DNA of 64,000 bases from Mobula hypostoma (Eukaryota), in assembly GCF_963921235.1 (NCBI RefSeq), contig NC_086097.1, positions 174,842,001-174,906,000 of the forward strand, read 5' to 3'. This document shows, piece by piece, positions 14,164 through 52,185 of this stretch; positions within the stretch are counted from its first letter, which is position 1, and every line of letters starts with the position of its first letter. The notes under the pieces are model-generated. The model ran no database searches, was not told the DNA's origin, and was given only the letters and a program-made list of their open reading frames with translations. The position numbers and the translations under genes were made by a program.

Positions 14164-14476
14164 TTTACTGTGGATTGTTAGCTGGGAAAAAACTAGTCTA
14201 TTAATCAGTGATTTCGAATGAATCAAGGACAATGGAAGTAGACAAACTCATCGTCTTTGTTCTTGCCTTGAGGTTGAAGGAGTGGAGACTGACATTTTAG
14301 GAAGCTGCTCTGTAATCTCTATTTTGTGAACTGTTTGAGAACTGATTCTTGCTCTGGGATAATCTAATCAGAGCAATTGAATATGGACACAAGGAGTTTG
14401 AGCTGCTAAACCTGAGATCATTCTCAGATAAACTGTGTAATGTGTACCATTGCAGGTCTACAGAAGTAATCCCATT

Positions 14477-27497: not shown

Positions 27498-28330
27498 CAC
27501 CACACACAAAATGCTGGAGGAACTCAGCAGACCAGGCAGCATCTATGGAAAAGAAGTACAGTCGACATTTCGGGTCGAAACCCTTCATTAGGACACTGGG
27601 GAAAAGAAAGATGAGAAGTTAGAGCAAGAAGCTGGGGGAAGGGGAGGAAGAAGTACAAGGTGGTAGGTCATAGGTGAAACCGGGAGAGGGGGAGGGATGA
27701 AGTAAAGAGCTGGGAAGCTGATGGGTGAAAGAGATAAAGGGCTGGAGAAGGGGGAATCTGATAGGAGAGGGTAGAACATGGAAGAAAGGGAATGGGAAGG
27801 AGCAACAGTGGGAGGTGATGAGCAGGTAAGGAGATGAGGTGAGAGAGGAGAATGGGAATAGTGAAGGTGGGGGAGGGGCAAGCAATTACTGGAAATTCAA
27901 GAAACCGATGCTCATACCATCAGGTTAGAGGCTACCCAGACGGAATATAAGGTGCTGTTCCTCAACCTGGGAGTGGCCTCATTGCAGCAGTAGAGGAGGC
28001 CATGGAATGACATGTCAGAATGGGAATGGGAAGTGGAATTAAAATGGGGGGCCACTGGGAGATCCTGCTTTTTCTGGCGGATGGAGAGTAAGTGCTCGGT
28101 GAAGCTTTCTCCCAATCCATGTCAGGTTTCACTGATGTACAGGAGGGAACACCAGATACAGTAGATGACACCAACAGACTCACAGGTGAAATGTCGCCTC
28201 ACCTGGAAGGACTGTTTGGGGCCCTGAATAGGAGTGAGGGAGGAAATGTAGGGGCAGGTGTAGTACTTGTTCCACTTGCAAGAATAAATACCAGGAGGGA
28301 GATCAGTGGGCAGAGATGAATAGAGTAGGG
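27498..28330 (-). mobile_element. Penelope-like element, 3' fragment (GIY-YIG C-terminus + 3' terminal repeat)
   Basis: Minus-strand ORFs: PPGIYSCKWNKYYTCPY...GVIYCIWCSLLYISET and EHLLSIRQKKQDLPVAPHFNSTSHSHSDM; homologous to 39100-39900. Confidence 0.88.
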
Positions 28331-31300
28331 CGTCACCACTAAGCCTCCTCCTGGTACTTATCCTTATGAGCAGAACTCGTTTAACAGCAGGATAGATGCT
28401 GTCGTTGCGCCTGATGTAACATCTTTTCGGGCTTTTATACCTTCTGCCCAATGGGAGTGTGGATCAGTGCAAATGTCTCAGGTGGGAGGAGTCCTTGATT
28501 TTATTGGCTGACTTCCCAAAACAGCATGAAGTCCAGACAGAATGAAAAGTTTACTTGCAGTAGCATCACAGGCTTATGCCATTAGAGACATTGCATTCAC
28601 AAGAAGGGCACAAATTAATTGTAACTTGTGCCAGAGGTATGTATTTACTGCCTGACGGTGATGCTACAACAGAATATCAGCATTGATTTTGTAGAATGGC
28701 AGAAACAGACATAAGGGGCAAATGGCCTGCTTCTGATCTGTTATGTTCTGAAGGGAGAATGAGGATCTGTTATTGCATTTAGTTGAGGAACAACAATAAG
28801 AGGCAGAGTGGAGTCAAAACACCAGTATGGACTGGCTGGGCCAAATGGCCCATTTCTACAATGCATATCTATCACTTTCCAAAGGATTCACTGAATTCAC
28901 CATCCAGAAGACCAAAATATATGAAGAGAATGATAGCATGAATGTTGAGAATTTTCTATCAAGACCATGTTGGGACCGGAATTCAGCCATCAGCCCGTAA
29001 CCTCTTCTCTGACGTTCGATCATGACTGATTTATTTTTCCTCTCAACCCCATTCTCCTGCCTTCTCCCTGTAACTTATGACATACTTGCTAATCAAGAAT
29101 CTATCAAACTCCACTTTGGCCTCCACAGCCACCCGTGGCAATGAATTCTACAGATTTATCATCCTCTGGAACAGAAGTTCCTCCTCATTTCTGTTCCAAA
29201 GGTACATTCTTCTATTCTGAGGCTGTACCTCTGTTCTTAGACTTTCACTATTGGGATTATCCTCTCCATTAGGTGGGAGTATCTCAAACAATAGTTACCC
29301 TGGAGGTACAAGAGACTCCAGATGCTGAAATTTGGAGCAATACACGAGATGTTGGAGGAACTCAGTGGGCAAGGCAATACCTATCCAGATGAAGAATCTT
29401 AACCTGAAATGTTGACCCATTTCAGATGTTACCAGACTTAGTTAGAAAGTTAGGAGGGTGGTCATTTAAAACTGAGAAGCATAGAGGCTGGTAAATCTCT
29501 GGAATTCTCTGCCCTGGAATGTTGTGGAGACTAGAACAGGGAAAACCTAGATCAATGTTGCAAGAATGAGAGAATTAAGGACGATGTGGAACAGGTACAG
29601 AGGCGGAGGTGAGGCCTAGCGAAGGTCAGCTTTAGCAGGAAGGGTTGGAGAGACTATCCCTGCTGCTGTGTCATAGAGTCATAGAGCTCTACAGCACAGA
29701 AGCAGGTCCTTCAGCCCATCTAACCTTATCTCCTGTCTGGTACCTGGACCATACCCTCCAAATCCCTGTGATCCATGTTTCAGTCTGTGCCACCTTGGTC
29801 TTCTGCCTAGTTCCATATAGCTGCACCTAGACCACAGCCCTCCCGTTAATATACTTAATCAGACTTCTCTTAAATATTACAATTAAACCCACATCTGCCA
29901 CTTCCACTGGCAGCTCATTCCACCCTCACACCATCTTCTAAGTGAAGAAGCCGCCCCTCAGATTCCGCTTGAATATTTCATCTTTCACTCTAAACTTATG
30001 ATCTGTCCCTGACTGAAGGAAAGCAACTGTATCGTTTACCCTATCTGTACCCCTCAAAACTTTGTATACTTCTATAAGATCTTCTCTCATTCTCCTGTGC
30101 TCCAGGGATCAAAGTCCTAACCTATTTAGGCTTCCCCTATAACTTGGGTCCTCAAGTCCTGGCAACATCCTTGTCAATTTTCTCTGTCTTGTTAATATCT
30201 TTCCTGTAGGTAGGTGACCGGAAGTGTGCACATCCATCAAACTCAACCCCAAGATCGTCGTGTACACCTTTTGTACTCAATGATGGCCAATGTGTCTAAA
30301 AGCTCTCTTTACAACCCCGTAATATCTACTTGTGATAACACTTTCAAGAAGTTGTCAATCTGTATTCCCAGGTCCTTTTGTTACAATTGTTTACTTCGGT
30401 CTTTATGTACACATGACTATTCCAAAGTTCTGCAGGAGCCTTCAAATTCAAAGTTGAAAAGTTCGAAGTAGATTTATTATCAAAGTATACATACACTATG
30501 TCACCACATACAACCCTGAGATTAGTTTTCTTGTAGGCATACTCAATAAATCCAATATTTCATAACAGAATCAACTGGGTCTACAACCAGTGTGCAAAAG
30601 ACTATAAACTCTGCAAATACAAAAAGAAAAATAATAATAATAAATAAACAATAAATATTGAAAACAGGAGATGGAAGAACTCTTGAAAGTGAGTCCATAG
30701 GTTGTGAGAACATTTCAGTGATGGGGCAAGTGAAACTGAGTGAAGTCATCCCCTCTGGTTCAGGAACCTGATGGTTGAGGGGTAGTACCTGTTCCAGAAC
30801 CTGGTGGTGAATCCTGAGGCTCCTGTACCACCTTCCTGATGGCAGCAGCAAGAAGTGAGCATAGCCTGGGCGGTGAAGGCTGCCGATTTGCTGCATTTCC
30901 TGTGGATGTGTTCAATGGTGGGGAGGGCTTCACCTGTGATGATCTGGGCTGTATCCAGTACTTTTTGTAGGATTTTCTATTCAGGGGCGTTGATGTTTGC
31001 ATATCAGCCTGTGATGCAGCCAGTCAGGATGCTGTCCACCACGCACCTATTCAGGCACTGTAGCACACCTGCTTCACATCTTCAGAAATTCCAGACTAAC
31101 CCTGTTCTCCAGTGCTGCCTGTCTGGAGTTTTCACGTTCTTCCTGTGACGTACGTGGGCTCCCTGCAGGTGCTCCACTTTCCTCCCACATCTTAAACTGT
31201 GCAGGTTGGTGAGTTAATTGTCTTTCGTAAGTTGCTCTTCATGTGCAGGTAAGAAGTATAATCTGGGAATGAGGGAGGAATTGAGAGAAAAGTAGGGAAG

Positions 31301-32659
31301 TGGATTTCAAGGAAAAAAAATTGTGAGGAACAGGAGTGGCATGGACTCACTGACTGAATTTCTGCTTCTTAATCATAGTGAATGGTTTTGTCTCAGAGGT
31401 GAGCCTTGCATGAAGTCCACATCCTGGAGTATCTAACTCATGCGGGGAAGTCAGGTTATTAGTCAAAGACGCAAGCGATTCTGCAAATACTGGAAATCTT
31501 GAGCAACACCCACAAGATGCTGGAGGAACTCAGAAGTTCAAGCAGCATCTATGGAGGGGAATAAACAGTCAGTGTTTAAGCCAGAGGCCCTAACTTGAAA
31601 TAACAGCTGTTCATCTCTCTCCAGAGATGCTGCCTGATCTGCTTGAGTTATTCCATCATTTTGTGCATGTAACACTGTATCTGGGATTTCACTGAAAGGA
31701 AGAAACACTTGCATTTCTATAGCATCTTTCACATTATTACAAAATGCTTTACAGCTGTTGGATTCTGATGCTTTTAATCCAGGGTTTGTTTCAAAGTCAG
31801 GAAAGAGGCACAAGACTTGTTGCTTCATGATCGTTTTACTAAGCTTTAATAGAATGAAGAAAATTGAAAAATGGATAATGGATAATGATACAGGTCTATT
31901 AAGTGAAGGGAGAGAGAAAATGAAAGATATCATAACCTCATGGTCAACTCTTTTTATACTCCATAGCTAAGAAATATTCAATTCAAATTTGAAGATAATA
32001 ATTAACCAATCAGATTCAAATAATACAACACTGGAGAAGCTTCCAGAGCTTTCCAAAATACAAAGAACTGTAACCATTAGGGGACACACTGAACAACGAC
32101 AGATACATATTGTGACCACTAGGAAACACACTAAACAATTACATGTATATAAGTGGTTATGTAAAATACAAACAGACTATTAATTGTTAAGATGCAAAGA
32201 AAATAACAAGTAAGCAGTCTAATCCAATAACTCCTCATTGATTCTAAATCACACATTTAGAATCACTACATCTGAAAATTCAGAGGCAGAAAGCTTGTGG
32301 TATCCTTAATAGGTGTAAAATAATCGAAAGCTTCTTAAATTAAGACCAGAGGCTATATATTCTTCATGGCATTCATAGGGTTATGTAACGGTTAGGCTGA
32401 TTATTAGACACACTTACCTGAGTTTGAACTATTCTATTAATGCTCACTCTTATACAAGTAAAAAAATGTAAAATATGTTAAAGTATATTAGTACTCATTT
32501 TAAGTAGGCAAGAATTGGCAAAAAAATAACAACTAATATTAGAATAAACATAATATCCAATCGTTGTTGATTTGTTCAAAGTCTTCTGGCTGTTTAGGCA
32601 CTGTGTGAGAGGTTGCTAGCACGTTAACCACAGCATTTGTTATCCTCATCTGGTTCCAC

Positions 32660-33205
32660 TTTAGCTCGCTTGCAGTGACTGATGTGCATCCACTTATTTT
32701 TGCTTTCTACTTTGACAGCCAGGTTACTTAAGGGATTATGTCCTTCCCATCGAGCTCCCATTGGTTCCTTATACAGTGCTTAATCACCATTCACCAGGAA
32801 TCAGGTCCTTCTGTTGGATCATGTCAAGTAGCAGAACCTGTTGAGAAGCAGACTGGACAGCTTGAGTTAATTTCACAGAATAGTTAACTAAACTATTTGC
32901 CGTAATGTGTACATCAGCCTCTCTGAGATTCATGGCTCGCAATGTTAACATCTCGAATGGATTTAGTTTCGTTTTCTTGTTTAAGGTTGCTCTGCTGCTA
33001 CATAAGGCCTTGGGAAGAGCCGTAGGCCATGGTACACTTTCCTCATAATACTTAGTCATTGCTTGATGTCACATTCATTCATTCAACTTGTCCTGATGAC
33101 TCTGGGTGATGTGGACGATGAAATAAACATTCAATGTTCATTAGTCTACTTAATTCCTGTCAAAGCTCCCAGTGAAATGTATTCCTTGGTCAGAGTTGAT
33201 ATGAC
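32660..33205 (-). mobile_element. Endogenous retrovirus integrase remnant (class I, gamma/epsilon-like)
   Basis: Minus-strand translation across frameshifts: INSDQGIHFTG...FHRPHHPESSGQVE*MN...WPTALPKALCSSRAT...LNPFEML...PGEW...RWEG...AVKVESKNKWMHISHCKRA. Confidence 0.82.
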
Positions 33206-33499
33206 ACAGCCAGATGAAGACTTTTGAAGCATTGCTCATGGTGCAAGGAGCTCAACAGTCAATTTCCCCACAGTTATCTCTTCCAGCATTGTGACATAGC
33301 AGAGAATTCGTTTTATTGAGACACATGCAACAGATGCTGGAACCTGGAGCAGCAAACAGCCTCCAGCAGGTCGAGCAGCATTTGTAGAGGGGAAAGGAAC
33401 CGTCAATCAGTGTAACTGATTGAAGGATCAACCAAGACACGAGAGAGAGCTCCTAGTCAGAACAGTGGGATGGTTTGTACCCACCTGAGATGTCAGAAA

Positions 33500-33625
33500 A
33501 AATCAGTACCCTTGAAAATGCAGCAGTCCTACAGTCTAGCACTGGACTTGTCAGCCTGTGCTCAAGATGGGACTTGAACCCACAGCCATCTAACTTGGAT
33601 GCCAGTTTGGTACCAATTGAGCAAC
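33500..33625 (-). mobile_element. Ancient DeuSINE-like (SacSINE1/AmnSINE-related) head fragment; related pieces near 5630-5690, 19290-19380, 43975-44035 and 45340-45410
   Basis: tgcagcagtcctacagtctagcactgg...gtcagcc...tgtgctcaag..gggacttgaacccaca is the reverse complement of a tRNA B-box (GGGTTCAAGTCCC) followed by a Deu-like segment. Family assignment from memory. Confidence 0.5.
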
Positions 33626-34614
33626 AGATGAGATGTCGGCAGAGTATACAGTCACTATTTTATGAGCCTAGTTATTCATAAGATGAACAAAATGGTGTAT
33701 TAACATGTTAACTACATTCTCAATTCTCAGTTGGGAGGTTATGTGAATCACAGTGTGCTGTAACTGGGGCACATACATTCTATTACAAACATACTTAATC
33801 TTAGAACATAGAATGAACAGTACAGCACAGAAACAGTTTCCTGGGCCCACGATATATGTGCTGACCATGGCACCCAATTAAATCTCTTCTGCCTGCCCAT
33901 ATCCTTCCATTCCCTGCCTGTTCATGTGCCTCTTAATCACCACTATCATATCTGCTTCCACCACCATATCTCGCAGCTCATTCAGGAACTCACCCCTCTG
34001 TGTAATGAAAACTTGCCCCCACATCTCCTCTCCTCTTAAATGCATGTCCTAGCATTTGACATTTTTACCCTGGAGAAAAGATACCGGCTGTCTATGCCTC
34101 TCATAATTTTATAATCCTCACTCAGATCTTCCTTCAGTCTCTGATACTCCAGAGAAAACAACCTAAGTTTGTCCAACCTCTCTTCTTTAGTTAGTATTCC
34201 CTCATTCTGGCAGCATCCCCATGAACCGCTTTGACACCTTCTCCAGAGCCCCCGCATCCTTCCCGCAATGGGGTGACCAGAAATTGTGTGATACTCCAGA
34301 GAGCCAATGAAAGCAGTGGTTATGCTCAGGGAATGGAGTGATGTGGAGGACAGGGACATTGGGAAGGGGAGGGAGATGTGGTTGGGAAGCTAACTGTGTT
34401 TAGTACTCCTGTATCCCATGTGTACTGCTGTTGGAAAAAACCATGAAGTGCAATTACATTTTAAAACACTTCTTTAAAAATTTTAATGCATAAAGACATA
34501 TTTATTGAATGTTTTCACCTGACAAAAAGAGTTTTTAATTTGCTGACAGACTTTTGATAGTGTCATTGTGTTTTCTTGCTCGTAATCCCACAATTTTTGT
34601 TTCCTCTGCCACAG

Positions 34615-34786
34615 AAATATACACACGTCCGATTATTATGTCAAGAAAGTCTAACACCTTATTACAAGAGCAAGCTATGGTGGTGTGGAATCTTCCTGAT
34701 GGGATTGGGTGAACTGGGGAACTTTGCTGCCTATGGTTTTGCACCGGCTACTCTGGTTGCTCCTTTGGGATGCGTGTCCGTTATCG
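34615..34786 (+). CDS. NIPAL2: NIPAL2 coding exon (172 nt, phase 0-1): [57 protein letters not shown]
   Basis: Acceptor ttcctctgccacag, donor G|gtaagg. Contains the NIPA signature [21 protein letters not shown], which is NIPAL2-type rather than the NIPAL3 'GVFASYAFAPLSL'. Confidence 0.95.
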
Positions 34787-35424
34787 GTAAGGATGACCTG
34801 CTGTCTGAGGAACGACCAGGGCAGGGGAATCAGGAGCTATAGAGTAGGAACTGAAGGGCATCCTTGTAAAACCATGAGAGGCATAGACAGGTAAATACAC
34901 ACAGTTATAGAAAATACAGAACATTACAGCACAGTACAGGCCCTTCAGCCCATGGTGTTGTGCCAACCTTCTAACCTACTCTAAGATCAGTCTAACCTTT
35001 CCCGCCCACAGAGACCTTGATTTTCTATCTAAGAATGTCTTAGATATCTCTAATGTATATGCCTCTACCACCAACCCTAGCAGTGCATTCCACGCACCGT
35101 GTTTAAAAAATATCATACCTCTGGCATTGCTCTTATACTTTACTCCAATCTCCTTAAAATTATGTCCCCTCGTATCAGTCTTTACAACCCTGGGGAAAAG
35201 ATGCTAGCTATCCACTCACTATATCTCTTCTCATTTTATACACCTCCATCAAGTCACCTCTCATCCTCCTTCACTCCAAACAGAAAAGCTAGAGAATATT
35301 CTCATTAATTATTTAATTTAAAACACACTGGATTTAGAAAGCTGGCCTCAGGAAAAGAATGATTGGATAGTCATCAAGAATAGCTGTGGTTCACTAAGAC
35401 CCTAACATTTTCCAGGAAGAAGTA

Positions 35425-35740
35425 GGACACAGTGGTACAGTTAGTAGAGCCTCTTCCTCACAGCTTGAGTGACCGAGGTTCGACTCCAGCCTCCGGTGCT
35501 GTGTGTGTGTGGAGTTTACATGACAGTGTGGGTTTCCTCGGGGTGCTCTCATTTCCTCACATGAAGGTTGGTTAGTTATTTGGCTACTGTACTTATCACT
35601 TGAGTGAAGGTGAGTGGTAGAATCTGGGGAGAGTGAGGGGAGAATAAAATGGGATTAATGACTGATTAGTGTAAATGAGTGATTGATGTTCAGCACGGAC
35701 ACAGTGGGTTGAAGGGCCTGTTTTTACGCTGTATGACCAT
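35425..35740 (+). mobile_element. tRNA-derived V-SINE (HE1-like); other copies at ~10370-10560(-), 31080-31330, 44555-44780, 46393-46580, 47885-48030(-), 62355-62660
   Basis: A box tggtacagttag, B box ggttcgactcc, central gtgggtttcctcggggtgctc..tttcctc V-domain, and CR1-like tail gggttgaagggcctgtttttacgctgta. Confidence 0.78.
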
Positions 35741-37365
35741 AGCAGTGAATATACCTGGTGTCCAAAGAGTGCAGGCACAGGTGCTGATGAGACCAAAACA
35801 GATGGACTGGGAGTCATACCATGCGGATGGATTTTAATTGCCCCCAACAACCTTCTGCAAGGCGACAACTGCCCCAAAGGCCTTCCTCTCCCCTCTTCAA
35901 GATGCCAATGTGGTAGGTCAGATTAAAAGTAAAAGCTTGCACTTAATGCACGCAAAATGTCCCAACCTTGGAATATTTGTAATCCTAAATTGACTTTGCC
36001 AGTTAAAGACACATGAAACCGAGACCTTGTGGGTGAAAAAGACCCCATTGTGAGATTTCACAGCAGTGTTCCTCCCTGTATTCTGGGAGTACTTTATTCT
36101 GTTGGACACTAAACTGCTAGTGGTGGCATTTTGGAGATTGTCAAAGGCATGGAACTGAATCACCCCCACCCCACTTCCCTCACACAGATAGGCCCCTGCT
36201 GGCTATTTACAAACTGGGATTGAAGCATGGCGCAGCTCTAGTGAAGGTAACTCCGCCCCAGGTAGTCTGCGTGGCCCCCAGAGCATTCAAACCATGGTTT
36301 TAATCAGTCCATTGCTTAAAAGACTGTTCCTAACCACTTATCCAAATTAAATTGAAAAACAGTTTCCTTCGATAAGTTGCTATGGTGATGAAGAATTTAG
36401 GAGATGAAGCCTGCATTTATACAGCAATGCCACATCATAGACTCCCTAATCTACATTGAAATTTTAATATTTATGTTATTTTTAGGTTTAGATTATCCAG
36501 GCGAGTTGGGAATGAGGTTGGGGATATTTTAGAGATTGTTACTAACTTTCAGCGAAATGGGAGAGCCTTCAGAGAGAGGGATGACACCTGGAAAGGAAGA
36601 TGCCTTTGCATTGTACTGTACATTTCATGGTCTAAAGATGCTTCAAGATGATTTGGCTGATAAAGTTGTTTCAAAACAATGAAACAATAGACTTCTCTTG
36701 GTCCCTATCCTGTCACAGACTGTTCTCTTTACCATCCCTCTTCTCCTCTAGTTTGACTAGGTGAGGGGTCTCAGTCTGAAAGATTGACTGTTTATTCCCC
36801 TTCATAGATGCTGCCTGACTTGCTGAGTTCCTCCAGTATTTTCTGTATGTTGCTCAAGATTTGTGGCTACCACATAATCTCTTGTTTTCATGTTTGACTT
36901 CAAATTTTTGCAAAAGCTATTGACCCGAAGTATTAATACTGTTTCTTTCTCCAAACATGCTGCCTGGCCAGCTTTTTCTGTTTTGTTTAGGTTGTTTGGA
37001 AGTATTTCACAATGTGCAATGTCGGGTGTGGTCTGCAGATAAAGGATATGGTGCAGGAGCAGGGATTGGCCATTTAGATCCTGGTTCCTGCTAGGCCTTT
37101 CAATAAGGTGGGAGTGGTTCAAGCTAATATGGGAATGGTTTAAACTAATATGGCAGGGGAATAGTTCACAAGAGGCAGGATAAATATGTCCCACAGAGGA
37201 AGTAGTTTTCAAATGGCAGGATTGGTATCCATGGCTGACAAGGGAAGTTAAGGATTGCATAAAAGACAGAGAGGGCATGTAAGGTAGCAAAAGTGAGTGG
37301 GAGCTACACACATCAAAGTTGCTGGTGAACGCAGCAGGCCAGGCAGCATCTATGGGAAGAGGTGC

Positions 37366-37401
37366 AGTCGACGTTTCAGGCCGAGACCCTTCGTCAGGAC
37401 T
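37366..37401 (-). ncRNA. Minimal type I hammerhead ribozyme motif in the PLE terminal repeat (intact core)
   Basis: Minus strand reads AGUC-CUGACGA-A-GGGU(CUCG)GCCU-GAAACGUC-GACU: helix I AGUC/GACU, CUGANGA and GAAA core, palindromic ACGU helix III, GUC cleavage triplet. Confidence 0.75.
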
Positions 37402-39802
37402 AACTGAAGGAAGAGTGAGTAAGGGATTTGAAAGTGGGAGGGGGAGGGGGAGATCCAAAATGATAGGAGAAGACAGGAGGGGGAGGGATAGAGCCAACAG
37501 CTGGACAGGTGATTGGCAAAAGGGGATATGAGAGGATCATGGGACAGGAGGTCCGGGGAGAAAGACACGGGTGGGGTGGAAAACCCAGAGGATGGGCAAG
37601 GAGTATAGTCAGAGGGACAGAGGGAGAAAAAGGAGAGTGAGAGAAAGAATGTGTGTATAAAAATAAATAACAAATGGGGTACGAGGAGGAAGTGGGGCAT
37701 TAGCGGAAGTTAAGAGAAGTCAATGTTCATGCCATCAGATTGGAGGCTACCCAGACGGAATATAAGGTGTTGTTCCTCCAACCTGAGTGTGGCTTCATCT
37801 TCACAGTAGAGGAGGCCGTGGATAGACATATCAGAATGGGAATGGGAGGTGGAATTAAAATGTGTGGCCATTGGGAGATCCTGCTTTCTCTGGCGGACAG
37901 AGCGTAGGTATTCAGCAGGTGTTCACTGCTACCAACCTTATAGTTCCCGCACCCTGCACTTCCCATTTCTACCTCCTACCCAAGATCCACAAACCTGCCT
38001 GTCCAGGTAGACCCATTGTCTCAGCTTGCTCCTGCTCCACTGAACTCATTTCTGCATACCTCAACACTGTTTTATTCCCCCTTGTTCAATCCCTTCCTAC
38101 CTATGTTCGTGACACTTCTCACGCTCTGAATTTTTTCAATGATTTTAAGTTCCCTGGCCCCCACCGCTTTATTTTCACCATGGATGTCCAGTCCCTATAT
38201 ACCTCCATCCCCCACCAGGAAGCTCTCAAAGCTCTCTGCTTCTTTTTGAATTCCAGACCTAATCAGTTCCCCTCTACCACCACTCTGCTCCATCTAGCGG
38301 ATTAGTCCTTACTCTTAATAATTTCTCCTTTGGCTCCTCCCACTTCCTCCAAACTAAAGGTGTAGCTGTGGGCACCCGCATGGGTCCTAGCTATGCCTGC
38401 TTTTTTGTTGGCTTTGTGGAACAATCCATGTTCCAAGCCTATACTGGTATCTGCCCCCCACTTTTCCTCGCTACATTGACGACTGCATTGGTGCTGCTTC
38501 CTGCACAAATGCTGAGCTCATTGACTTCATTAACTTTGCCTCCAACTTTCACCCTGCCCTCAAGTTTACCTGGTCCATTTCTGACACCTCCCTCCCCTTT
38601 CCAGATCTTTCTGTCTCTATCTCTGGAGACAGCTTATCTACTGATGTCTACTATAAGCCTATGGACTCTCACAGCTATCTGGACTATTCCTCTTCTCACC
38701 CTGTCTCTTGCAAAAATGCCATCCCCTTCTCGCAATTCCTCCGTCTCCGCCGCATCTGCTCTCAGGATGAGGCTTTTCATTCCAGGACGAAGGAGATGTC
38801 CTCCTTTTTTAAAGAAAGGGGCTTCCCTTCCTCCACCATCAACTCTGCTCTCAAACGCATCTCTCCCATTTCACGCATACCTGCTCTCACCCCATCCTCC
38901 CGCCACCCCACTAGGAATAGGGTTCCCCTTGTCCTCACTTACCACCCCACCAGCCTCCGGGTCCAACATATCTCCGTAATTTCCGCCACCTCCAACGGGA
39001 TCCCACCACTAAGCACATCTTTCCCTCCCCCCCCCCCCGCTTTCCGCAGGGATTGGTCCCTACGCGACTCCTTTGTCCATTCGTCCCCTCCATCACTTCC
39101 TACCGATCTCCCTCCTGGCACTTATCCTTGTAAGCGGAACAAGTGCTACATATGCCCTTACACTTCCTCCCTTACCACCATTCAGGGCCCCAGACAGTCG
39201 TTCCAGGTGAGGCAACACTTCACCTGTGAGTTGGCTGGGGTGATATACTGCGTCCAGTGTTCCCGATGTGGCCTTCTATATATTGGCGAGACCCGACACA
39301 GGCTGGGAGACCGTTTCGCTGAACACCTATGCTCTGTCTGCCAGAGAAAGCAGGATCTCCCAGTGGCCACACATTTTAATTCCACGTCCCATTCCCATTC
39401 TGATATGTCTATCCACGGCCTCCTCTACTGTCAAGATGAAGCCACACTCAGGTTGGAGGAACAACACCTTATATTCCGCCTGGGTAGCCTCCAACCGGAT
39501 GGCATGAACATTGACTTCTCTAACTTCCATTAATCACCACCTCCCCTTCGTACCCCATATTATTATTTTTTCTCTCTCCTTTTTCTCCCTCTGTCCCTCT
39601 CACTATACTCCTTGCCCACCCTCTGGACTCTTTCCCCCCGCCCTTTTTTTCTCCCTAGGCCTTCCGTCCCATGATCCTCTCATATCCCTTTTGCCAATCA
39701 ACTTTCCAGCTCTTAGCTCCATCCCCCCCCCCACTATCTTTTCCTATCATTTCGGATCTCCCCCTCCCCCTTTCAAATATCTTACTATCTCTTCTTTCAG
39801 TT

Positions 39803-39838
39803 AGTCCTGACGAAGGGTCTTGGCCCGAAATGTTGACT
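39803..39838 (+). ncRNA. Minimal hammerhead ribozyme motif, CpG-decayed copy
   Basis: AGUC-CUGACGA-A-GGGU(CUUG)GCCC-GAAAUGUU-GACU. Core retained; ACGUC is changed to AUGUU. Confidence 0.6.
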
Positions 39839-41397
39839 GTACCTCTTCCTAGAGATGCTGCCTTGCCTGCTGCGTTCACCAGCAACTTTTATGTGTGTTG
39901 CTTGAAATTCCAGCTTCTGCAAATTTCCTCATGTAAAAGTGAATGGGAAGTTGGAGGATTGGGAAGCTTTTAAAATCCAACAAAAGGCAACTAAAAAAAG
40001 CTATTAAGAAGAGAAAAGATGAAATATGAAGCAGATTAGCCAATAATATATAGCAGGGTACTAAAAGTTTTTTCAGTTATTTAAAGAGCAAAAGGGAGGT
40101 GAGAGTTGATACTGGACCACTGGATAATGATGCTGGTGAGGTAGTAATGGGGGACAAAGAAATGGCAGATGAACTTAATGGATACTTTGCATCTGTCTTC
40201 TCTGTGGAAGACACTAGCAGTGTGCTAGAAGTCCGTGAATGTCAGGGAGCAGGAGCAAGGCTGCTTAACAAAATTAAATCCTATGGTGTTTCAGAAAAGA
40301 TGCTGTCATGGATAGAGGAATGGTTGACAGGCAAGAGACAGCAAGTGGAAATAAATGGTGCCTTTTCTAGTCGACTCCCAGTGACTAGTGGTGTTCCTCG
40401 GGGGTCAGTATTGAGACCACTACTTTTCACATTGTTTGTCAGTGATTTGGATAATGGAATTGATGGCTTTGTGGCAAAGTTTGCAGATGATACGAAGATA
40501 GGTGGAGGGGTAGGTAGTGCTGAGGAAGCAATGCAATTGCAGCAGGACTCAGACAAATTGGAAGAATGGGCAGAAAGGTGGCAGGTGGAATACAGTGATG
40601 GGAAATGTATGATAATGGATTTTGGTAAAAGGAATGATGGTACGGATTAAACATCAGAGGTGCAGAGGACTTTAGGAGTCCTCGTGCAAGCCTCCCAGAA
40701 GGTTAATTTACAGGTTGAGTCTGTGGTAAAGAAGGCAAATGCAATGTTGACATTTATTGCAAGGGGCATTTGGAGTATTGTAAACAGTTTTGAGCCCCTT
40801 ATCTCAGAAAGGATGTGTTGTCATTGGAGAGAGTCCAGAGGAGATTCCCGAGGATGATTCTAGGAATGAAGGGGTTAACATATGAGGAGCATTTGGCAGC
40901 TTTGTGCCTGTACTCACTGGAATTAGAAGAATGCCAGGGGCTGAGAGGTGGTGGGGGGGATCTCATTGAAACCTACCAAATATTGACTGGACTAGATAAG
41001 GTGGATGTCGAGAGGATGTTTCCTATGGTGAGAGTATCTAGAACTGGGGGGCACAGCCTCAAAATTGAGGGGCAATCTTTTAGGACAGAACCTTTTTTAG
41101 CCAGAGAGTATTGAACATGTGGAATGCTCTGCAACAGACTGTGGTGGAAGCCAGATCTGTGGATATATTTAAGGCAGAAGTTGATAGTTTCTTGATTGGT
41201 CAGGGCATCAAAAGATGTGGCAAGGGGCAGGTGTGTGGAGTTGAGTGGGATCTGGTATAGAATGGTGGAGCAGACTCAATGGGCTGAATGGCCTAATTCT
41301 GCTCCAATGTCTTATGGTCTTAAGATCCAGGCTGGTTCTGTGCCTGAGGTCCACGTTCCTGTCCAATGCCCTTATTCTTTCAGTGTCCAGTTACTGA

Positions 41398-41640
41398 GCA
41401 ACACACAAATGCTGGAGGAACTCAACAGGTCAGACAGCATCTCTGGAGGGAAATGAATGGTCAACGCTTTGGACCGAGAGTCTTCACCAGGACTCAAAAG
41501 GAAGAGAACAAACACCAAAATGGGAAGGTGGAGGGAGGGGAAGGAGATCAAGCTGGCAGTTAATAGGTGAGACCAGGTGAGGGGGAAGGTGGGTAGGTGG
41601 GACAGAGGAGATGATGGGGAAAGCTGGGAGGTGGTTCCCT
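41398..41640 (-). mobile_element. Solo PLE 3' terminal-repeat fragment with a degenerate hammerhead motif (41459-41494)
   Basis: acacacaaatgctggaggaactcaacaggtcagacagcatc...tcttcaccaggact followed by a purine-rich tract, as in 27498-27900 and 37303-37700. Confidence 0.7.
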
Positions 41641-41892
41641 ACCTCCTCCCCTTTATTCAATGGATAGCCGTGCTCTATTAAATTCCATCAACTTCAGCCC
41701 TTTGACTTGATGTGCAGTTCTGTTGCCCCATTGGAGGAAGGATGTGGAGGCTTTGGAAAGGGTACAGAAAAGCTTTACCAGGATGAAGTCTGGATTAGAG
41801 GTCATGAGCTACAGGGAAAGATTGAATAAAGTCGTGTTATTTCTTTTCAGTAGTGTCAGAGACTAAAGGGAGACCTGATAGTAGGTTATAAA

Positions 41893-43592
41893 GAGTAGGG
41901 GACAGAGGGTCCAGTGAGATGGAGGAACTGAGCGAAATACTTGTTAGTAGGGAAGTGGTGTTAGGTAAATTGAAGGGATTGAAGGCAGATAAATCCCCAG
42001 GGCCAGATGGTCTGCATCCTAGAGTGCTTAAGGAAGTAGCCCAAGAAATAGTGGATGCATTAGTGATAATTTTTCAAAACTCGTTAGATTCTGGACTAGT
42101 TCCTGAGGATTGGAGGGTGGCTAATGTAACCCCACTTTTTAAAAAAGGAGGGAAAGAGAAACCGGGGAATTATGGACCAGTTAGCCTAACGTCGATGGTG
42201 GGGAAACTGCTGGAGTCAGTTATCAAAGATGTGATAACAGCACATTTGGAAAGCGGTGAAATCATCGGACAAAGTCAGCATGGATTTGTGAAAGGAAAAT
42301 CATGTCTGACGAATCTCATAGAATTTTTTGAGGATGTAACCAGTAGAGTGGATAGGGGAGAACCAGTGGATGTGGTATATTTGGATTTTCAAAAGGCTTT
42401 TGACAAGGTCCCACACAGGAGATTAGTGTGCAAACTTAAAGCACACGGTATTGGGGGTAAGGTATTGATGTGGATGGAGAATTGGTTGGCAGACAGGAAG
42501 CAAAGAGTGGGAATAAACGGGACCTTTTCAGAAAGGCAGGCAGTGACTAGTGGGGTACCACAAGGCTCAGAGCTGGGACCCCAGTAGTTTACAATATATA
42601 TTAATGACTTTGATGAGGGAATTAAATGCAGCATCTCCAAGTTTGCGGATGACACGAAGCTGGGCGGCAGTGTTAGCTGTGAGGAGGGCGGCAGTGTTAG
42701 CTGTGAGGAGGATGCTAAGAGGATGCAGAGTGACTTGGATAGGTTGGGTGAGTGGGCAAATTCATGGCAGATGCAATTTAATGTGGATAAATGTGAAGTT
42801 ATCCACTTTGGTGGCAAAAATAGGAAAACAGATTATTATCTGAATGGTAGCCAATTAGGAAAAGGGGAGGTGCAACGAGACCTGGGTGTCATTATACACC
42901 AGTCATTGAAAGTGGGCATGCAGGTACAGCAGGCGGTGAAAAAGGCGAATGGTATGCTGGCATTTATAGCGAGAGGATTCGAGTACAGGAGCAGGGAAAT
43001 ACTACTGCAGTTGTACAAGGCCTTGGTGAGACCACACCTGGAGTATTGTGTGCAGTTTTGGTCCCCTAATCTGAGGAAAGACATCCTTGCCATAGAGGGA
43101 GTACAAAGAAGGTTCACCAGATTGATTCCTGGGATGGCAGGACTTTCATATGAAGAAAGACTGGATGAACTGGGCTTGTACTCGTTGGAATTTAGAAGAT
43201 TGAGGGGGGATCTGATTGAAACATATAAAATCCTAAAGGGATTGGACAGGCTAGATGCAGGAAGATTGTTCCCGATGTTGGGGAAGTCCAGAACAAGGGG
43301 TCACAGTTTGAGGATAAAGGGGAAGCCTTTTAGGACCAAGATTAGGAAAAACTTCTTCACACAGAGAGTGGTGAATCTGTGGAATTCTCTGCCACAGGAA
43401 ACAGTTGAGGCCAGTTCATTGGCTATATTTAAGAGGGAGTTAGATATGGCCCTTGTGGCTACGGGAATCAGGGGGTATGGAGGGAAGGCTGGGGCGGGGT
43501 TCTGAGTTGGATGATCAGCCATGATCATAATAAATGGCAGTGCAGGCTCGAAGGGCCGAATGGCCTACTCCTGCACCTATTTTCTATGTTTC
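41893..43592 (+). mobile_element. Young 5'-truncated CR1 LINE with near-intact RT, inserted in an older CR1 3' fragment (41707-41892 / 43593-43935)
   Basis: ORFs 41919-42587 and 42723-43505 share a frame and are separated by one TAG. Motifs KSPGPDGLHPRVLKE, YLDFQKAFDKVPH, GVPQGS, KFADDTKL; tail tttctatgtttc; TSD tataaa at 41887-41892 and 43593-43598. Confidence 0.95.
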
Positions 43593-45591: not shown

Positions 45592-45651
45592 CAAGTGCAG
45601 CAATGTCGGTGGTGTTCCTGAAGGAAAAGCTGCGGTCTTCAGATATCTTGG
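45592..45651 (+). CDS. NIPAL2: NIPAL2 coding exon (60 nt, phase 1-1): ASAAMSVVFLKEKLRSSDIL
   Basis: Acceptor tgtttttcgttcag with upstream branch-like ctaat, donor G|gtaatt. Matches the NIPAL2 'SA.ISV.FLK..LR.SD.LG' segment; phase compatible on both sides. Confidence 0.9.
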
Positions 45652-47499
45652 GTAATTCATATTTTCTATATGAGTCTGTTGTTTAGATGATTACTGAAGA
45701 TGACCAAAAATATTTCTCATAATGCTTTTACAACATAACAAGCCCTTTGGCCCATCAAATCCATTCCTGGTGTCAGAGTGATCCCATCAGTCCAATACCC
45801 CCACTTATTTCCCTGTAACCCACATGCCCCTCCTCCTCCCCTCCCACAGGTTTGTCTCCAGAAACCAGAAAATAAGAGCTGGATTATGCTACCAGACTTC
45901 TCCAGTCTGTCCCACCATTCAGTCTGACCCTGGCTGATCTCTGGAGGGAAATGGGCAGCTGATGTTTCAGATTGTAATCCTCGGGTTTTTTGTGTTGCTC
46001 TGCATTCCAGCATGGCAGTTTTTTGTCTCCCCACGGTTGATCTGTACTAGTACAGGAAAGGAGTGAGACAAGTTGTCCCATCACCCTTAATTCCCTAATC
46101 ATTCCAATGTTTATCTGTCCTCTCCTTTAATATGTCCAATGATCTAACCCTGGGCCAGAGAATCCAGCGATTCACTACCATGTGAAAGATGTATGTTCTA
46201 TGCATCTCAGTTTTAAATGACTAGTTTACTATTTTGTAGCTAAAATTGATAAATTGGTTTATTATTGTCACATGTACCAGGATATGGTGAAAATTTTGTT
46301 TTGCATGTCAACAAGACAGACCATTTCTCTACAAAACTACCTTGAGGTAAAACAAGAACACAATGCAGTGTTGTGTTACAATTACAAAGAAAGTAGCGGT
46401 TAGTGCATCGCTTTGCAGTGCCAGTGACCCGGGTTCAATTCCTGCCACTGCCTGTAAGGATTTTTTTTTGTTCTCCCTCCCTGTGATCACATGGGTTTCC
46501 TCTGGGTGTCCAAAGACGCACCCATTAGTCATTGTAAATTGTCCTGTGATTAGGGTAGTGTTAAAAAGATGGGTTGGATTAGGCTCATCGTGGCATTAGG
46601 CTATGGTGTAGTCATATAGCATGAAAACAGGTCCTTCGACCCAACTGGCGCAACCCAGCTAAGGTTTCCATTTAAGCTAGTCCCATTTGCCTGCATTTAA
46701 TCTACATCCCTCTCTATTTTTCCTGTCCACTTACCTGTCCGAGTGCCTTTTAAATGTTAACAATCCTGCCTCAACCACTTCCTCTGGCTCATTCCATTAT
46801 GGACCACCCTCTGGGTGGATAGTTACCCCTCAGGTTCCTATTAAATCTCTCCTCCCACCCTAAACTGGTGTCCTTCGGTTCTTGATTCCTCAACCGTGAG
46901 TGCATTCACCCTTTCTAAGCCCCTCTTGATTTTATTCACCTCTATACGATCACGATTCAATTTCCTGCACTTCAGTGAATAAAGTCTCAACTTGCTCAAC
47001 ATCTCCCTTTAACTCAATCCTGTAAGATCTTGGAGAACCCTGCACTGTTGTGGTGGATGTAGTGGCTCTTTCACTCCCATGCCCTTCCTGCACACTTTGG
47101 TGGCATGTTTTCAAAGTTGGAGCATTGCTGGCCAGGAGCTGAATGGACTGGATGGCCAGCAAGCACAAGCACAAGCCCAGTTGGACCTCAGGCTCTGTCT
47201 GGTTTGATAGAGGGGAAAGAGCTGTGCCTTGAAATGTTGGGGAGGTCGGAAATGGGTCACCACTTCACTTTGAGTCAGCAGTCAGGAGTGGGGTGTGTTC
47301 TGATTTAAGGAGGGGAAAGGAATGACAGCAGCAGATTGGAATTTGGGCTGATGAGCAGCAATGGTAATGAGCAAGGTCTCAGAGAAGGACTGCTGGAACT
47401 CAAGGTCAAATGCAAATGAACGAGCCTCTGTCTTGACTGATCTGAGAATCCAGCCTCGGGGGATGCAGGTTTGGGGAATTGGAGGGATTTGGCAGTGTG

Positions 47500-50400
47500 G
47501 AGTTCAAAATTCAAAATAAATTTATTATCAAAGTGCATGTATGTCACCATATACAACTCTGAGATTAATTTTCTTGTGGGCAGTCACAGTAAATACAAGA
47601 AGCACAATAGAATCGATGAAAGACAGCACACAACAGGACTGACAAACAACCAATGTGCAAAAAACAACAAACTGTAAATACAAATACAGAGAAAAAAATA
47701 ATAATTAAGCATTAAATATTGAGAGCATAAGATGAAGAGTTCGTAGGTTGTGGGAACAGTTCAATGAAGAAGTGAGTGAAGTTGAGTGGTTATCATCTTT
47801 GAATCAAGAGCCTGATGGTTGAGGGTAATAACTGTTCCTGAACCTGGTGGTGTGAGTCCAGAGGCTGCTGTCCCTTCCTCCTGATTATTTATTTAGGGGT
47901 ACAGCTTGGAACAGGCCCTGAGGGCCCAACAAGCTGCACCGCCCAGCAACCACCTATTTAACCCTAGCCTAGTTACGGGACAATTTACAATGACAGATTA
48001 ACCTACTAACTGGTACGTCTTTGGACTGTGGATGGCAGCAGCGAGAAGAGAGCATAACCTGGATGATGGGGGTCCTGCTTTTCTGCATCAGTGCTCCTTG
48101 TAGATGTGCTCAACGCTGGAGAGGGCTTTACCTGTGATAGACTGGGTCATATCCACTACTTTTCATAGGATCTTCCATTCAAGAGCCTTGGGGTTTCCAT
48201 ATCAGGCCATAATGCCGCCAGTCAATATACTCTCCACTACACATCCAGAGAAGTTTGTCTAAGTTATAGATGATATGCCAGATCTTCACAAACTCTGAGA
48301 AAGTAGAGGCGCTGTGTGCTTTCTTTATAATGTCACTTACATGCTGGTCCCAGGATAGATCTTCTGAAATGATAACACTGAGGAATTTAAAGTTGTTTTT
48401 GCTCTCCACCTCTGATCCCCCAGTGAGGACTGGCTCATGGACGTCTGGTTTCCCCTTCCTGATATCAGTAATCATCTCCTTGGTCTTGCTGATATTGAGT
48501 GAGAGGTTGTCATGGCACCACTCAGCCAGATTTTCAAGCACCCTCCTACATGCTGACTCATCACCACCTTTGATTTGGCCTCTGACAGTGGTGTCAGCAG
48601 CAAACTTAAATATAGCATTGGAACTGTGCTTGGCCTCATAGTCATAAGTGTAAAGTGAGTAGAGCAGGGGGCTAAGCATGCAGCTTTGTGCACCTGTGCT
48701 GATGGGAATTGCGAAGGAGATTTTGTTGTCAATCCAAACTCACTGGAGTCTGCAAGTAAGGAAATCCAGGATCCAATTGCACAAGAAGGAACTGAGGCCT
48801 TGGACTTGAAGCTTATTGATTAGTTTTGAGGAGATGGTATTATTGAATGCCGAGTCAATGAGGAGCTTCCTGATGTATGTATCTTCACTGTCCAGATGTT
48901 CCAGGGTTGACTGAGGAGCTAATGAAATGGATTCTACTGTTGACCTGTTGTCAAATTGAAGCAGATCCAAGTTGCTTCTCAGGCAGGAGTTGATAGGTTT
49001 CATCACCAACCTCTTAAAGTACTCCATCACAGTGGATGTAAGTGCTACTGGAAAATAGTCATTCGGGCAGGTAACCATGTTTTTCTTGGTATAATTCAGC
49101 ACAATTAAGCCTGCTTGAAGCAGGTGGGTATCTCAGACTGCTGAAATGACAGGTTAAAAATATCAGTGAACACTGCAGCCAGTTGATCGGACCAGGTCTT
49201 TCGTACCCGGCCAGGTACCCCTTGTGGGCCAGATGCTTTCGGTTGACTCCCCCTCCTACAAGGATGCTCTCACGTTGGCCTCAGAGACTGAAAGTACAGT
49301 GTCATCAAGAGCTGTCGGAGTTCATGAAGGTGTCTCTTGTCTTGATGGTTAAAGCAAGCATAAAAGGCATTCGACTCATCTGGGACTGGAGCTTTGTTGT
49401 TACTTATGTCACTTGGTTCATTTTCAAACATTTCAAAGGTACAATTTAATGTCAGGGAAATGTATGCGATATACATCCTGAGATGCTTTTTCTTCGCAAC
49501 CATCCATAAAAACAGAGGAGTGCTCCCAAAGAATGAACAACAGTTAAATATTAGAACCCCAAGGTCCCCCCCCAGCTCCCCCCTCCCTCCTACGTGTAAG
49601 TGGCAGCAAGCAACGATCCCCCTCCCCCTCACCAGCAAAAAAAAAAGCATTGGCACCCGCCACCGAGCACTCAAGAGTGAGCAAAGCAACAGCAAAGACA
49701 CAGACTTGCAGTTACTCCAAAGACTACTCGTTCACCCGGTATTCGACATGCCATAGGCTCTCTCTGTCCTTAATAAGAGGGAAAGAGGTGTCTCCGTTTC
49801 ACAACGAGAGGGGAAACATAACAAACAATTTGCTGGTTTACGATGTTAATAGTCCATTGCATCACTTTTTCGGAGCTCTGTGCCCAAAGGTCTCAGGTCT
49901 CAGGTCTCTGGGCACACAGCCTTAGATCTCCCATCCCCCCCACGACACACCGATCTCCTGCCTGGACACCAACCTTCGATCCGCCTGTCTCCAGAGCCAC
50001 GAGGTCTCAACCATCCGAAGGCAAGCTGAGCTCTTAGGCCACACCCTTGGAATGCCGAATAATGGCCAGTCGTGAAACCCCGAGAGTGGTCCCATTCCCG
50101 CAAAGAACCATAGTCAGCGTGTAAGAGGTGATAGCACTCAAGCCCTGTTGTCGAGTATCCTTCAGTGATTCAAGTTTGGTCCTGAATTGGCATTTCACAT
50201 AGAGACCTCTTGTATTTAACTTGGTCGCCAGACTTTCTAATCAGTTTATTGAGCCTGTTGGCATCACTCGTGTTGATACCATTGCCCAGCACACCGTCAC
50301 ATAAAAGATTATACAACAGACTGGTCAAACATGTGAAGGAGAGGCCTGCATACTCCAAAGAACCTTCATCTCCTCAGGAAGTAGAGGTTACAGTGGCCCT

Positions 50401-51420
50401 TCTTGTACACAGCCTCTGTGTTGGTGCTCCACTCAAGTCTGACATCCAGGTGCAACCCCCAGGAACTTGTAGGTCCTCACCACATTAACATCCTCAACAT
50501 CAATAGTAACATGGATCAATGCAGGCTTAGTCTTCCTAAAGTCCATCACCATCTCCTTTGTCTTACTGATGTTGAGCTGCAGATTATGCAGCTTGCACCT
50601 TTTGACAAAGTTCTCCACCAGGGCCCTGTATTCATCCTCCCTTTACACACCCAATTATTGCTGAGTGATCAGAGAATTTCTGCAGGTGACATGACTATGC
50701 ATGGAACAGTAGGCACTCCTAATGATTGTGTAACAGTGGTTGAGTGTGTTGGGACCCCTGGTGCTGCAGATGATATATTGATAATTGGGAAGAGATTTCT
50801 TCAAACAAGCCTGATTGAAATCCCCAACAATGATTTGAAAGACCATTGGGATGGGCTGTTTCTTGTGTGCTGATCATGGCAATTAGTACCTTGAGTGTCT
50901 GCTTAATGTTGGCCTTTGACGATATGTAAACTGCGATCAGGATCACAGAGGTGAACTCTCTTGGTAAAGTAGAATGGTCTGCACTTAATTATTACATGTT
51001 CCAAGTTGGAGAGCAAGAGTGCGACAAGACCACTGCATTAGAGCGCTACTAAAAGTTTATCATTGAAACCTTTGCCTTCTCCGAATCAGCAGTCCGGTCC
51101 ATTCAGTGTATTGAGAAGCCCTCAGGTTTTACCAACATATTCAGCGTGTCCGGAGTGAGCCATGTCTCCATGAAACAAAAAACACAGCTATTCCTCATTT
51201 CCCTCCAGAACAGCAATCTTGCCCTTAGGTCCTCAATCTTGTTCTCCAGCAACTGTACATTTGAAAACAAGATGCTGGATAGAGGGCATTTCAGTCTGAC
51301 TAGGAGTCCTCCCCTTCTCCCTCTCTTTTGGCCCTGGTGATATACCTTCATTTGCCTAAAGGTGCCATGCCTGTGTGCTTCAGAGTTAGGTCTGCAATAG
51401 CATTCAGAAGAATGTGAAAG
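47500..51420 (-). mobile_element. Composite Rex1/Babar-type LINE (endonuclease through 3' UTR) with nested inserts
   Basis: SILFSNVQLLENKIEDLRARL..CVFCFMETWL (endonuclease), [48 protein letters not shown]. Interrupted by a SINE (~47885-48030), a non-coding element (~49420-50125) and a second Rex family (~50225-50700). Confidence 0.85.
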
Positions 51421-51714
51421 CGCTAGTTCATTAAGACGGTTCAAAAGTTTGTTACTTAAAAGGAAATTGCAGGCTGCAGATTGGAATGAGAGTAGTTCAG
51501 AAGTATCTTTGGAAGTTTTGTAAGAGAAAATGGGGTATGGAGAGGATGATTGTGAGGGTTATTGAGGCTTCGGGTGTAGCATAGATGGGTACCCACAAAG
51601 GACCAAAAATGCGTAACAGTCTGGGAAGATGTGGAGGTGTCCAGCAAAAGGGTCATTTCAGGAAAGCTTAGTCCAACCTCACATAGAGTGTTGTGAAAGC
51701 ACAATGCACAGGGA

Positions 51715-52185
51715 ATCCCAAAACACACAGACTGTTGGAGGAACTCAGCAAGTCTGCCAGCATCTATGGAGGGACATAAATAAGTCAATGTTTCAGGCTG
51801 AAACCTTTCATCAGGACTGGAAAGGAAGGGGGCAGGAACCAGAATAAGAAGGTGGGAGGGAAAGGAGTGCAAACTGGCAGCTGATGGGTGAGACCAGGTG
51901 AGGGGGAAGGTGGGTGGGTGGTGGAGGGGGGGGTGAAAGGGAATGATCTGAGAAGTTGGGAAGTGATGGGTGGAAAAAGTAAAGGGCTGAAGAAGGAGGA
52001 ATATGATGGGAGAGGATAATGGACCATGGAATAACAGGAATGTATTGGAGAACCAGAGGACGTGATGGGCAAGTCATGAGAGTGGGGGAAAAGAAGAGAA
52101 GGGGAGAGAGGACCACAAGAAAGAGGGAAACCAAAGGTGGAGGGGAACAGAGAATGAATTAGAGAAATCGATGTTCATGCCATCA
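51715..52185 (-). mobile_element. PLE 3' fragment (last ORF codons DGMNIDFSN + terminal repeat) with hammerhead motif at 51783-51818
   Basis: Minus strand AGUC-CUGAUGA-A-AGGU(UUCA)GCCU-GAAACAUU-GACU; the ORF end matches the 38661-39533 C-terminus. Confidence 0.8.

Follow-up and report, generated by a model that had tools for sequence, protein, structure and literature searches.

Minimal hammerhead motifs in NIPAL2 introns of the ray Mobula hypostoma probably belong to the terminal repeats of a hugely amplified Neptune-type Penelope-like element

The window analysed here is a 64-kb stretch (C1:174842001-174906000) of the searched genome of Mobula hypostoma (3.48 Gb, 200 contigs). Its host gene is NIPAL2 on the + strand, and the closest proteins come from myliobatiform rays. 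A coding exon of NIPAL2 lies at 34612..34788(+) and further exons lie near 13151, 45590, 52436, 55605, 56946, 60910 and 63790(+); all were placed with tblastn and their edges are approximate. Every hammerhead motif copy of the window sits in the NIPAL2 introns. The original prediction had named seven such motifs as minimal type I hammerheads with a palindromic helix III and an extra A, carried on the terminal repeats of Penelope-like elements (PLEs). All seven were found in place, and that identification held. One of the seven is intact and the other six are damaged or cut short. The intact copy, at 37366..37401(-), is the only one in the window and is antisense to NIPAL2. It consists of a 4-bp helix I, the core, an extra A after A9, a 4-bp helix II, GAA, a 4-base palindrome without loop 3, and C17, and is thus a complete minimal type I hammerhead. 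It had already been called intact, and indeed it has lost neither a core position nor any part of the two helices and the palindrome.

Signed positions below are counted from the predicted cut, with position 17 as 0. The intact motif is part of a young PLE insertion composed of two arms. The inverted arm (37302..37916, -) contains the endonuclease end, the 3′ untranslated region (UTR), the ribozyme and an untailed 3′ end at +68. The other arm (37924..39929, +) is truncated at its 5′ side and contains a broken open reading frame (ORF) for reverse transcriptase (RT) and GIY-YIG endonuclease with a stop at 39533, followed by the 3′ UTR, the ribozyme and a tail ending at +95. The two arms form one head-to-head insertion with an imperfect duplication of about 14 bp on its flanks. 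The ribozyme of the second arm (39803..39838, +), which is sense to NIPAL2, is damaged in the palindrome and at position 17. An older 3′ fragment with an endonuclease remnant lies at 27496..28318(-), and its ribozyme (27560-27594) has G5 changed to A. Old termini with damaged ribozymes are found at 36731..36855(+) (ribozyme 36757-36790, core changes), at 41397..41600(-) with about 100 nt of 3′ UTR (ribozyme 41459-41494, core changes) and at 51719..52184(-) with 3′ UTR (ribozyme 51783-51818). In 39803(+) and 51783(-), the palindrome was broken through CpG-type changes. The last of the seven motifs, 29385-29416, is the + arm of a short decayed inverted pair of termini (29340..29430, ends approximate). 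Two copies had been missed before: a short inverted pair whose termini meet within the ribozyme (31503..31670) and a weak terminus remnant (36912..36973, +; profile E 1.7e-4). RT or endonuclease sequence is still present on three of the seven cited copies (37366, 39803 and 27560). No copy of the window is in tandem, so the tandem arrangement of retrozymes is absent from these 64 kb. An Rfam scan of the window at E≤5 gave no hammerhead and three unrelated weak matches.

A profile was built from the copies and applied to 1.164 Mb, namely 164 kb around the window and five blind 200-kb blocks. It detected 196 termini, and none in the reversed sequence. The window holds 10 of them, the surrounding 164 kb 35, and the five blind blocks 161 (17-40 per block). 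The density of the window (10 per 64 kb) is therefore about that of the blind blocks (161 per Mb), and extrapolation of the sample gives about 560,000 termini genome-wide. The exact core-plus-palindrome pattern matched the genome 33,061 + 33,197 = 66,258 times and the reversed control 0 times. This agrees with the state of the sampled termini, 19 of which are intact, 93 damaged and 84 not whole. The expected very high density in this genome is thus confirmed. A special link to NIPAL2 is not supported, and enrichment in this gene was ruled out, because the density equals that of the blind blocks. All copies of the window lie within NIPAL2, and conserved intronic hammerheads are known in amniotes (PMC6155905). 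However, a co-opted role of these copies in cutting or regulating NIPAL2 pre-mRNA is extremely improbable: all those in sense orientation are damaged or incomplete, the single intact one being antisense, the density is that of the genome sample, and the decay described below is neutral.

Other features of the window were also recorded. A possible alternative NIPAL2 exon at 13811-13867(+) matches 19 residues that are present in one of three NIPAL2 proteins tested. LINE fragments, which we take to be CR1-like, lie at 41892-43505(+), with an RVT_1 match (E 5e-19) for 41892-42584, and similar pieces are found at 7860-9900, 14465-15620, 20278-21470 and 39930-41320. A long CT-rich low-complexity array with 8-12-nt units occupies 23377-24000.

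By its motifs rather than by a tree, the carrier is assigned to the Neptune-type PLEs. The order of its unit is ribozyme, ATG at +139, RT, zinc-finger linker, GIY-YIG, a 3′ UTR of about 310 nt and the next ribozyme. The period is 3513-3515 nt with one ribozyme per tandem unit. At locus L051, three ribozymes are spaced by this distance and the repeats are 98-99% identical; L054, L057 and L265 have two ribozymes each, so that the motif stands in both repeats flanking the PLE ORF. The single ORF of L054 matches RVT_1 (E 4.8e-5) and GIY-YIG (E 0.001), both under the Pfam cut-offs, and contains DKG and YIDD motifs. The linker between RT and endonuclease is CX4CXXC. The endonuclease, for which the Neptune clade has CCHH, shows a CXXC and downstream histidines, as read by eye. 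Linkers of the form CX2-5CXXC are described for Neptune and Nematis, not for Poseidon (PMC8557442), and vertebrate PLEs are reported as Neptune and Poseidon only (10.64898/2026.07.22.740005). The partial tandems, the inverted 5′ copy and the 30-40-nt tail of endonuclease-bearing PLEs are all present. There are 74,180 RT candidates in the genome, and 3.9% of the 1.164-Mb sample is alignable to the PLE unit. In the young subfamily, exact downstream 27-mers number 96,352 and exact ORF-start 29-mers 553; therefore the copies are strongly 3′-biased. Four contig sets of guessed kind gave a 3′-weighted depth on the PLE unit, without starts, ends or strand.

Conservation of the motif was examined in two collections. 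Unsupervised clustering placed 114 of the 196 rows into six flank-defined groups, the limits of which are rough. For the young subfamily, 111 copies were picked by flank and 6 were dropped for indels, which left 105; some of these loci had entered the set through RT or ORF-start matches. The core of minimal hammerheads (C3-A9, G12-A14, A15.1, U16.1 and H17) is found in 37366-37401(-) and in the 66,258 genomic copies. The palindromic 15.2-16.2 without loop 3 is found as well, and in old copies the palindrome has been lost by CpG decay. The extra nucleotide between 9 and 10.1 is A in the majority rows of all six groups. Four of the 20 old copies of the sixth group have CA in place of AA after G8; they are possibly an old subfamily, which would hint at the first of these two nucleotides as the bulge. 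The core majority is the same in five of the six groups (four groups of at least eight copies, 5-22% diverged, and a five-copy group) and deviates only in a two-copy group, while the +6 to +19 flank differs among groups with an unchanged core. The segment +20..+55 is about as conserved among donors as the ribozyme. The conservation of the core among donors is thus consistent with selection, but catalysis is not singled out by it.

The inserted copies behave differently from the donors. Of the 1050 non-CpG core cells of the 105 young copies, 13 deviate from the majority. For the +28..+50 flank the figure is 60 of 2205, falling to 26 of 2100 once the subfamily site +28 is set aside. Since core and flank decay alike, the inserted copies decay neutrally. 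CpG positions of the same copies are off the majority in 4-10%. The helix changes fixed between groups are all one-sided, namely G-C to G-U at 10.1-11.1 and U-G to U-A at 10.4-11.4. Two-sided helix cells number 0-8 per pair and are of transition type, versus 12-34 broken cells. The helix II variants quoted in the original prediction do keep their pairing; they reflect one-sided subfamily changes or CpG-type decay and do not support selection on these copies. A comparison of the grouped rows, along the lines of the consensus and covariation analysis it had proposed, shows a core conserved across groups and no two-sided helix change fixed between subfamilies.

Hammerheads usually keep G-C at 10.1-11.1. 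In the ray, this pair is G-C in two older groups and G-U in 92 of the 105 young copies; it is also G-U in the oldest groups, where it probably arose by CpG decay. The dominant young subfamily with its G-U speaks for a motif that is a vestige, or a protein-binding or priming element, without cleavage even in the donors. The predicted folding points in the same direction. The best fold of the monomer is an inactive hairpin in which the core is paired with the palindrome region (-10.0 kcal/mol, z -0.37), and the hammerhead fold reaches -6.0 kcal/mol as a monomer and -9.5 as a dimer, versus about -20 for two hairpins; these energies are only indicative, since ViennaRNA leaves out the core tertiary contacts. 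Besides, the PLE of the anole did without cleavage in vitro, and Naiads have no ribozyme. We nevertheless consider such a loss of function unlikely, because the full set of catalytic positions has been retained across subfamilies, together with the two helices and the palindrome, with the reservation that +20..+55 is about as conserved.

The ends of the copies inform on the RNA that was copied. The 3′ ends fall into two classes in the histogram, at about +65 and about +102, and are rarer near +170 and +260. The predicted cut site is mostly spanned by the copies. A purine stands at position 0 in 1,181 of 96,352, and 16 of 30 inspected cases are truncations. Copies starting at +1 amount to about 1.3%, with no excess at the cut site, and the ribozyme cut was therefore ruled out as the 5′ boundary. 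In the copies that carry an exact match to the anchor, mismatching begins at -30 in 1,422 (3.8%), at -31 in 2,886 (7.9%), at -32 in 2,799 (8.4%) and at -33 in 975 (3.2%), and over -34..-38 in 2.2% per base (29,698 to 26,526 copies); these rates include about 1% of point mutation, and the denominators are approximate because one pattern was a base shorter. The 5′ ends thus show a peak at the two bases with which helix I begins. Position -31 is the first base of helix I and presumably the A of an initiator-like motif. At 60 loci with such 5′ ends, the flank is mostly target DNA or an inverted arm, and a few are point mutants. Capture of a host exon via a 3′ splice site was ruled out as the origin of the -30/-31 ends, because what adjoins these ends is target DNA or an inverted arm, directly bordered by target duplications. 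The thousands of copies that begin at the first bases of the motif likely mark the start of the element RNA. To judge from these ends, the copied RNA likely was uncut and started at the ribozyme.

Long copies were analysed at 69 ORF-start loci taken from the first 71 listed of 553. Among 34 long loci, 25 crossed the upstream ribozyme; only one of these 25 ended in -47..0 and 20 went past -200. Therefore, the ribozyme fold is no barrier in itself. On the other hand, 27 of the 35 loci with 3′ ends at +162..+989 crossed it, and 15 of these 27 ended in -47..0 and 2 past -200. The long copies and those of the first 1 kb differ by Fisher test (p 5e-5 for ending in -47..0, p 1e-7 for passing -200). 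One template class ends near the front edge of the ribozyme. The long copies need RNA longer than one unit, and tandem read-through and a circle look alike in these data. The pile-up at -30/-31 could also be produced by a roadblock, either a protein on the ribozyme beside the priming site or a fold, together with microhomology joining, instead of an RNA 5′ end. The PLE protein of the anole binds near the ribozyme and helps its folding (PMC11167929), the upstream ribozyme crossed by the long copies might merely be unbound, and microhomology junctions were seen. However, copies primed 250-1000 nt downstream still stop there (the 15 of 27 above), with only two beyond -200, and the initiator-like motif at -31 also favours a start of RNA. 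We regard the roadblock as somewhat unlikely.

Inverted insertions follow a strict two-site rule, which is relevant to PLE transposition. In all, 75 head-to-head pairs were pooled from all loci, many of them pattern-chosen, and 61 have both ends in +50..+125. Each of the 61 pairs consists of one short (untailed) and one tailed arm, as do 11 of 11 in the block sample, and unpaired copies are short or tailed in a ratio of 94:93 (duplicates kept). The untailed arm reaches further 5′ in 24 of 61 pairs and the tailed arm in 20 of 61. Fold-back of one cDNA was ruled out as the origin, because the untailed arm extends further in those 24. The arms differ at 30 of 422 subfamily sites, compared with 41% after shuffling (minimum 34% in 500) and a background of 152 of 4463. 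A target duplication of at least 8 nt surrounds 52 of 61 pairs, versus 9 of 300 controls. From these features we infer that a pair arises by two primings of one complex on RNA of one donor. The arm lengths are correlated within a pair (13 both short, 4 both long, 0 mixed); this suggests a property of the complex and counts for the roadblock.

Tandem copies were found at a few loci. L261:3473-4738 (C2:157816473-157817738) is a non-coding array of four ribozyme motifs with a 310-nt period and a 13-bp target duplication. Its junctions join +276, next to which the full unit has GT, to -33, before which there are a pyrimidine tract and AG. A junction search, in which 40 of 1,101 candidates were scored, gave a second locus, L340:1231-1679 (C50), with two such junctions. 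Both loci have a ribozyme motif in each unit as well as target duplications, and in both the +276/-33 junction is an exact GT-AG splice junction. When four contig sets were compared with this junction, none of 27 pieces out of about 12,000 bridged it, a blank that carries no weight. Position 17 alternates between T and C in the units of L261, perhaps because the template comprised two units or because of a subsequent duplication. A back-spliced circle would most simply account for both loci, with forward splicing of a long tandem transcript as a possible alternative. The same search gave seven loci (L341-L344, L346, L347 and L363) joining +267..269 to -31..-46. Their structure would fit an enzyme that ran off its template at an RNA 5′ terminus and then switched to a 3′ terminus close to the splice donor. 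The upstream segment starts at -29..-31 in four of these seven; the query did not select this end, and the coincidence speaks against the roadblock. At L061:7924-8129 + 6262-7920 (C1:174798262-174800129), a copy begins at -26, traverses the ORF as far as -1986 and continues with -31..+65. This is a template jump at the same boundary as the -31 5′ ends.

Tentatively, an RNA of about 300 nt from the -31 start to the +276 splice donor could be the template itself, which we hold to be possible rather than probable. It would be copied once, copied twice by end-to-end jumping, or copied round as a back-spliced circle, while a protein dimer would prime both strands at two sites on the RNA of one donor. 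If this is true, retrozyme-like arrays arise from the PLE by means of the spliceosome and not of the ribozyme.

The solo termini might instead be a separate non-autonomous, retrozyme-like family amplified via ribozyme-cut circles; amplified truncated or retrozyme-like units had been the original explanation of the window copies. The accompanying claim of copies that are the terminus only is supported. For 154 of the 196 termini, the 700 nt upstream show no ORF homology (one query protein was used and old families may be missed), which fits such a family if taken alone. Starts within -47..+30 in 22 of 48 young copies also fit such a family. Tandems that satisfy the retrozyme definition do exist, but they are few, with 4 × 310 nt in L261 and two junctions in L340. 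Nevertheless, the copy ends do not match the cut site, no window copy is in tandem and three of the seven cited copies keep RT or endonuclease sequence. Short and ORF-bearing young copies cluster together and have both 3′ end classes and the subfamily sites in common. None of the tandem junctions detected corresponds to a ribozyme junction, all being splice junctions or template jumps, and a unit of 96-135 nt with one ribozyme cannot form a dimer in cis. A separate retrozyme family is therefore very unlikely, and the solo ends are better taken as short products of the autonomous element.

The reading we prefer, with considerable confidence, places these minimal hammerheads in the terminal repeat of a Neptune-type PLE that was amplified on a huge scale. 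The window copies would be intronic insertions that decay neutrally and are likely inactive, and their ends would follow from the following priming cycle. The element protein would nick both target strands and prime reverse transcription inside uncut element RNA, at fixed sites at about +65 and about +102 and less often near +170 and +260. One RNA class would begin at -31, probably by transcription start there, and priming near this 5′ end would run off it and leave solo termini of about 95-135 nt. Two primings from one donor, one per site, would give a head-to-head pair with one tail. Long copies would come from RNA longer than one unit, by tandem read-through or from a circle, in which the upstream ribozyme is crossed. 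The ribozyme would be under selection only in the active donor line, and by analogy with relatives it may cut there only as a protein-assisted dimer.

Several points weigh against this reading, in addition to the motif-based assignment of the carrier, the merely indicative folding energies and the many termini free of ORF homology. The 5′ peak is only about four times the neighbouring rate, and other ends are scattered between -7 and about -200. Part of the peak (5 of 30 loci) is due to microhomology with the inverted arm. An extra G before -31, as a cap might leave, showed no excess by eye among the first 100 matches listed. A target duplication of at least 8 nt is present in only 18 of 41 unpaired copies starting at -33..-28. 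Finally, the window pair 37302-39929 departs from most pairs in that its arms disagree at 9 of 25 subfamily sites, which would point to two donor RNAs or to later gene conversion.

Minimal hammerheads are already known from PLE terminal repeats, and the motif itself is ordinary. The worth of the present material is that tens of thousands of near-identical copies form a very large and young fossil record of a transposition cycle for which a single in vitro system has been published. As for the role of the PLE hammerhead, the genome suggests that the copied RNA is mostly uncut and that one RNA class probably begins at the ribozyme.

A literature search at title and abstract level, with subscription papers such as the promoter mapping in Drosophila virilis outside its scope, gave no paper on ray PLE hammerheads, on a 5′ boundary at helix I or on spliced PLE circles. 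The minimal hammerheads of metazoan PLE pseudo-long terminal repeats were described by Cervera and De la Pena in 2014 as mostly single, with some opposite-strand pairs and low dimer activity (PMC4209133). The ray motif resembles them in the missing loop 3, the palindromic 15.2-16.2, the extra base between 9 and 10.1 and the short helix I, and also in having one motif per flanking repeat and mostly single or opposite-strand motifs of truncated PLEs (PMC4209133). It differs in its 4-bp helix II, with G-U at 10.1-11.1 in the young subfamily, and in its number, since 66,258 exact cores compare with about 4,000 in the coelacanth and about 9,000 in Xenopus tropicalis, which were counted by another search method (PMC4209133). 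The one supplementary table of that paper that was searched has no shark or ray name. The closest mechanistic parallel is the Poseidon element of Anolis carolinensis (Frangieh et al. 2024, PMC11167929), which likewise has a tail defined by two internal priming sites at a distance of 30-40 nt, extension of both target strands, uncut RNA as the main template and a ribozyme near the ORF start. In contrast, the ray element has a Neptune-type linker and its ATG lies 139 nt past the cut, not inside the ribozyme; a 5′ boundary at helix I is not described for the anole element in the accessible text, and the anole cycle is known in vitro whereas that of the ray is read from genomic copies alone (PMC11167929).

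With endonuclease-bearing PLEs, the ray element shares 5′ truncation, partial tandems, an adjacent inverted copy and target duplications (PMC8557442, PMC3846280). A tail on one end only was also described before (Craig et al. 2021, PMC8557442; Arkhipova et al. 2013, PMC3846280). The ray data differ in the quantified tail rule (61 of 61), in the untailed arm being longer in 24 of 61, and in the arms being of one donor subfamily. Retrozymes have been found in one chondrichthyan (Li, Clavereau and Pollet 2026, 10.64898/2026.07.22.740005), and the supplements of that work may cover the ray lineage. Because up to 120,000 retrozymes are reported for the axolotl (Cervera and de la Pena 2020, PMC7229834), the copy number in the ray is no record. 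Like the non-LTR retrozymes of animals (PMC7229834; 10.64898/2026.07.22.740005), the ray termini derive from PLE terminal repeats, and L261 is a non-coding 310-nt tandem. Unlike retrozymes, the window copies are not in tandem, their ribozyme is minimal and not canonical, and the units of L261 and L340 are joined by splice junctions.

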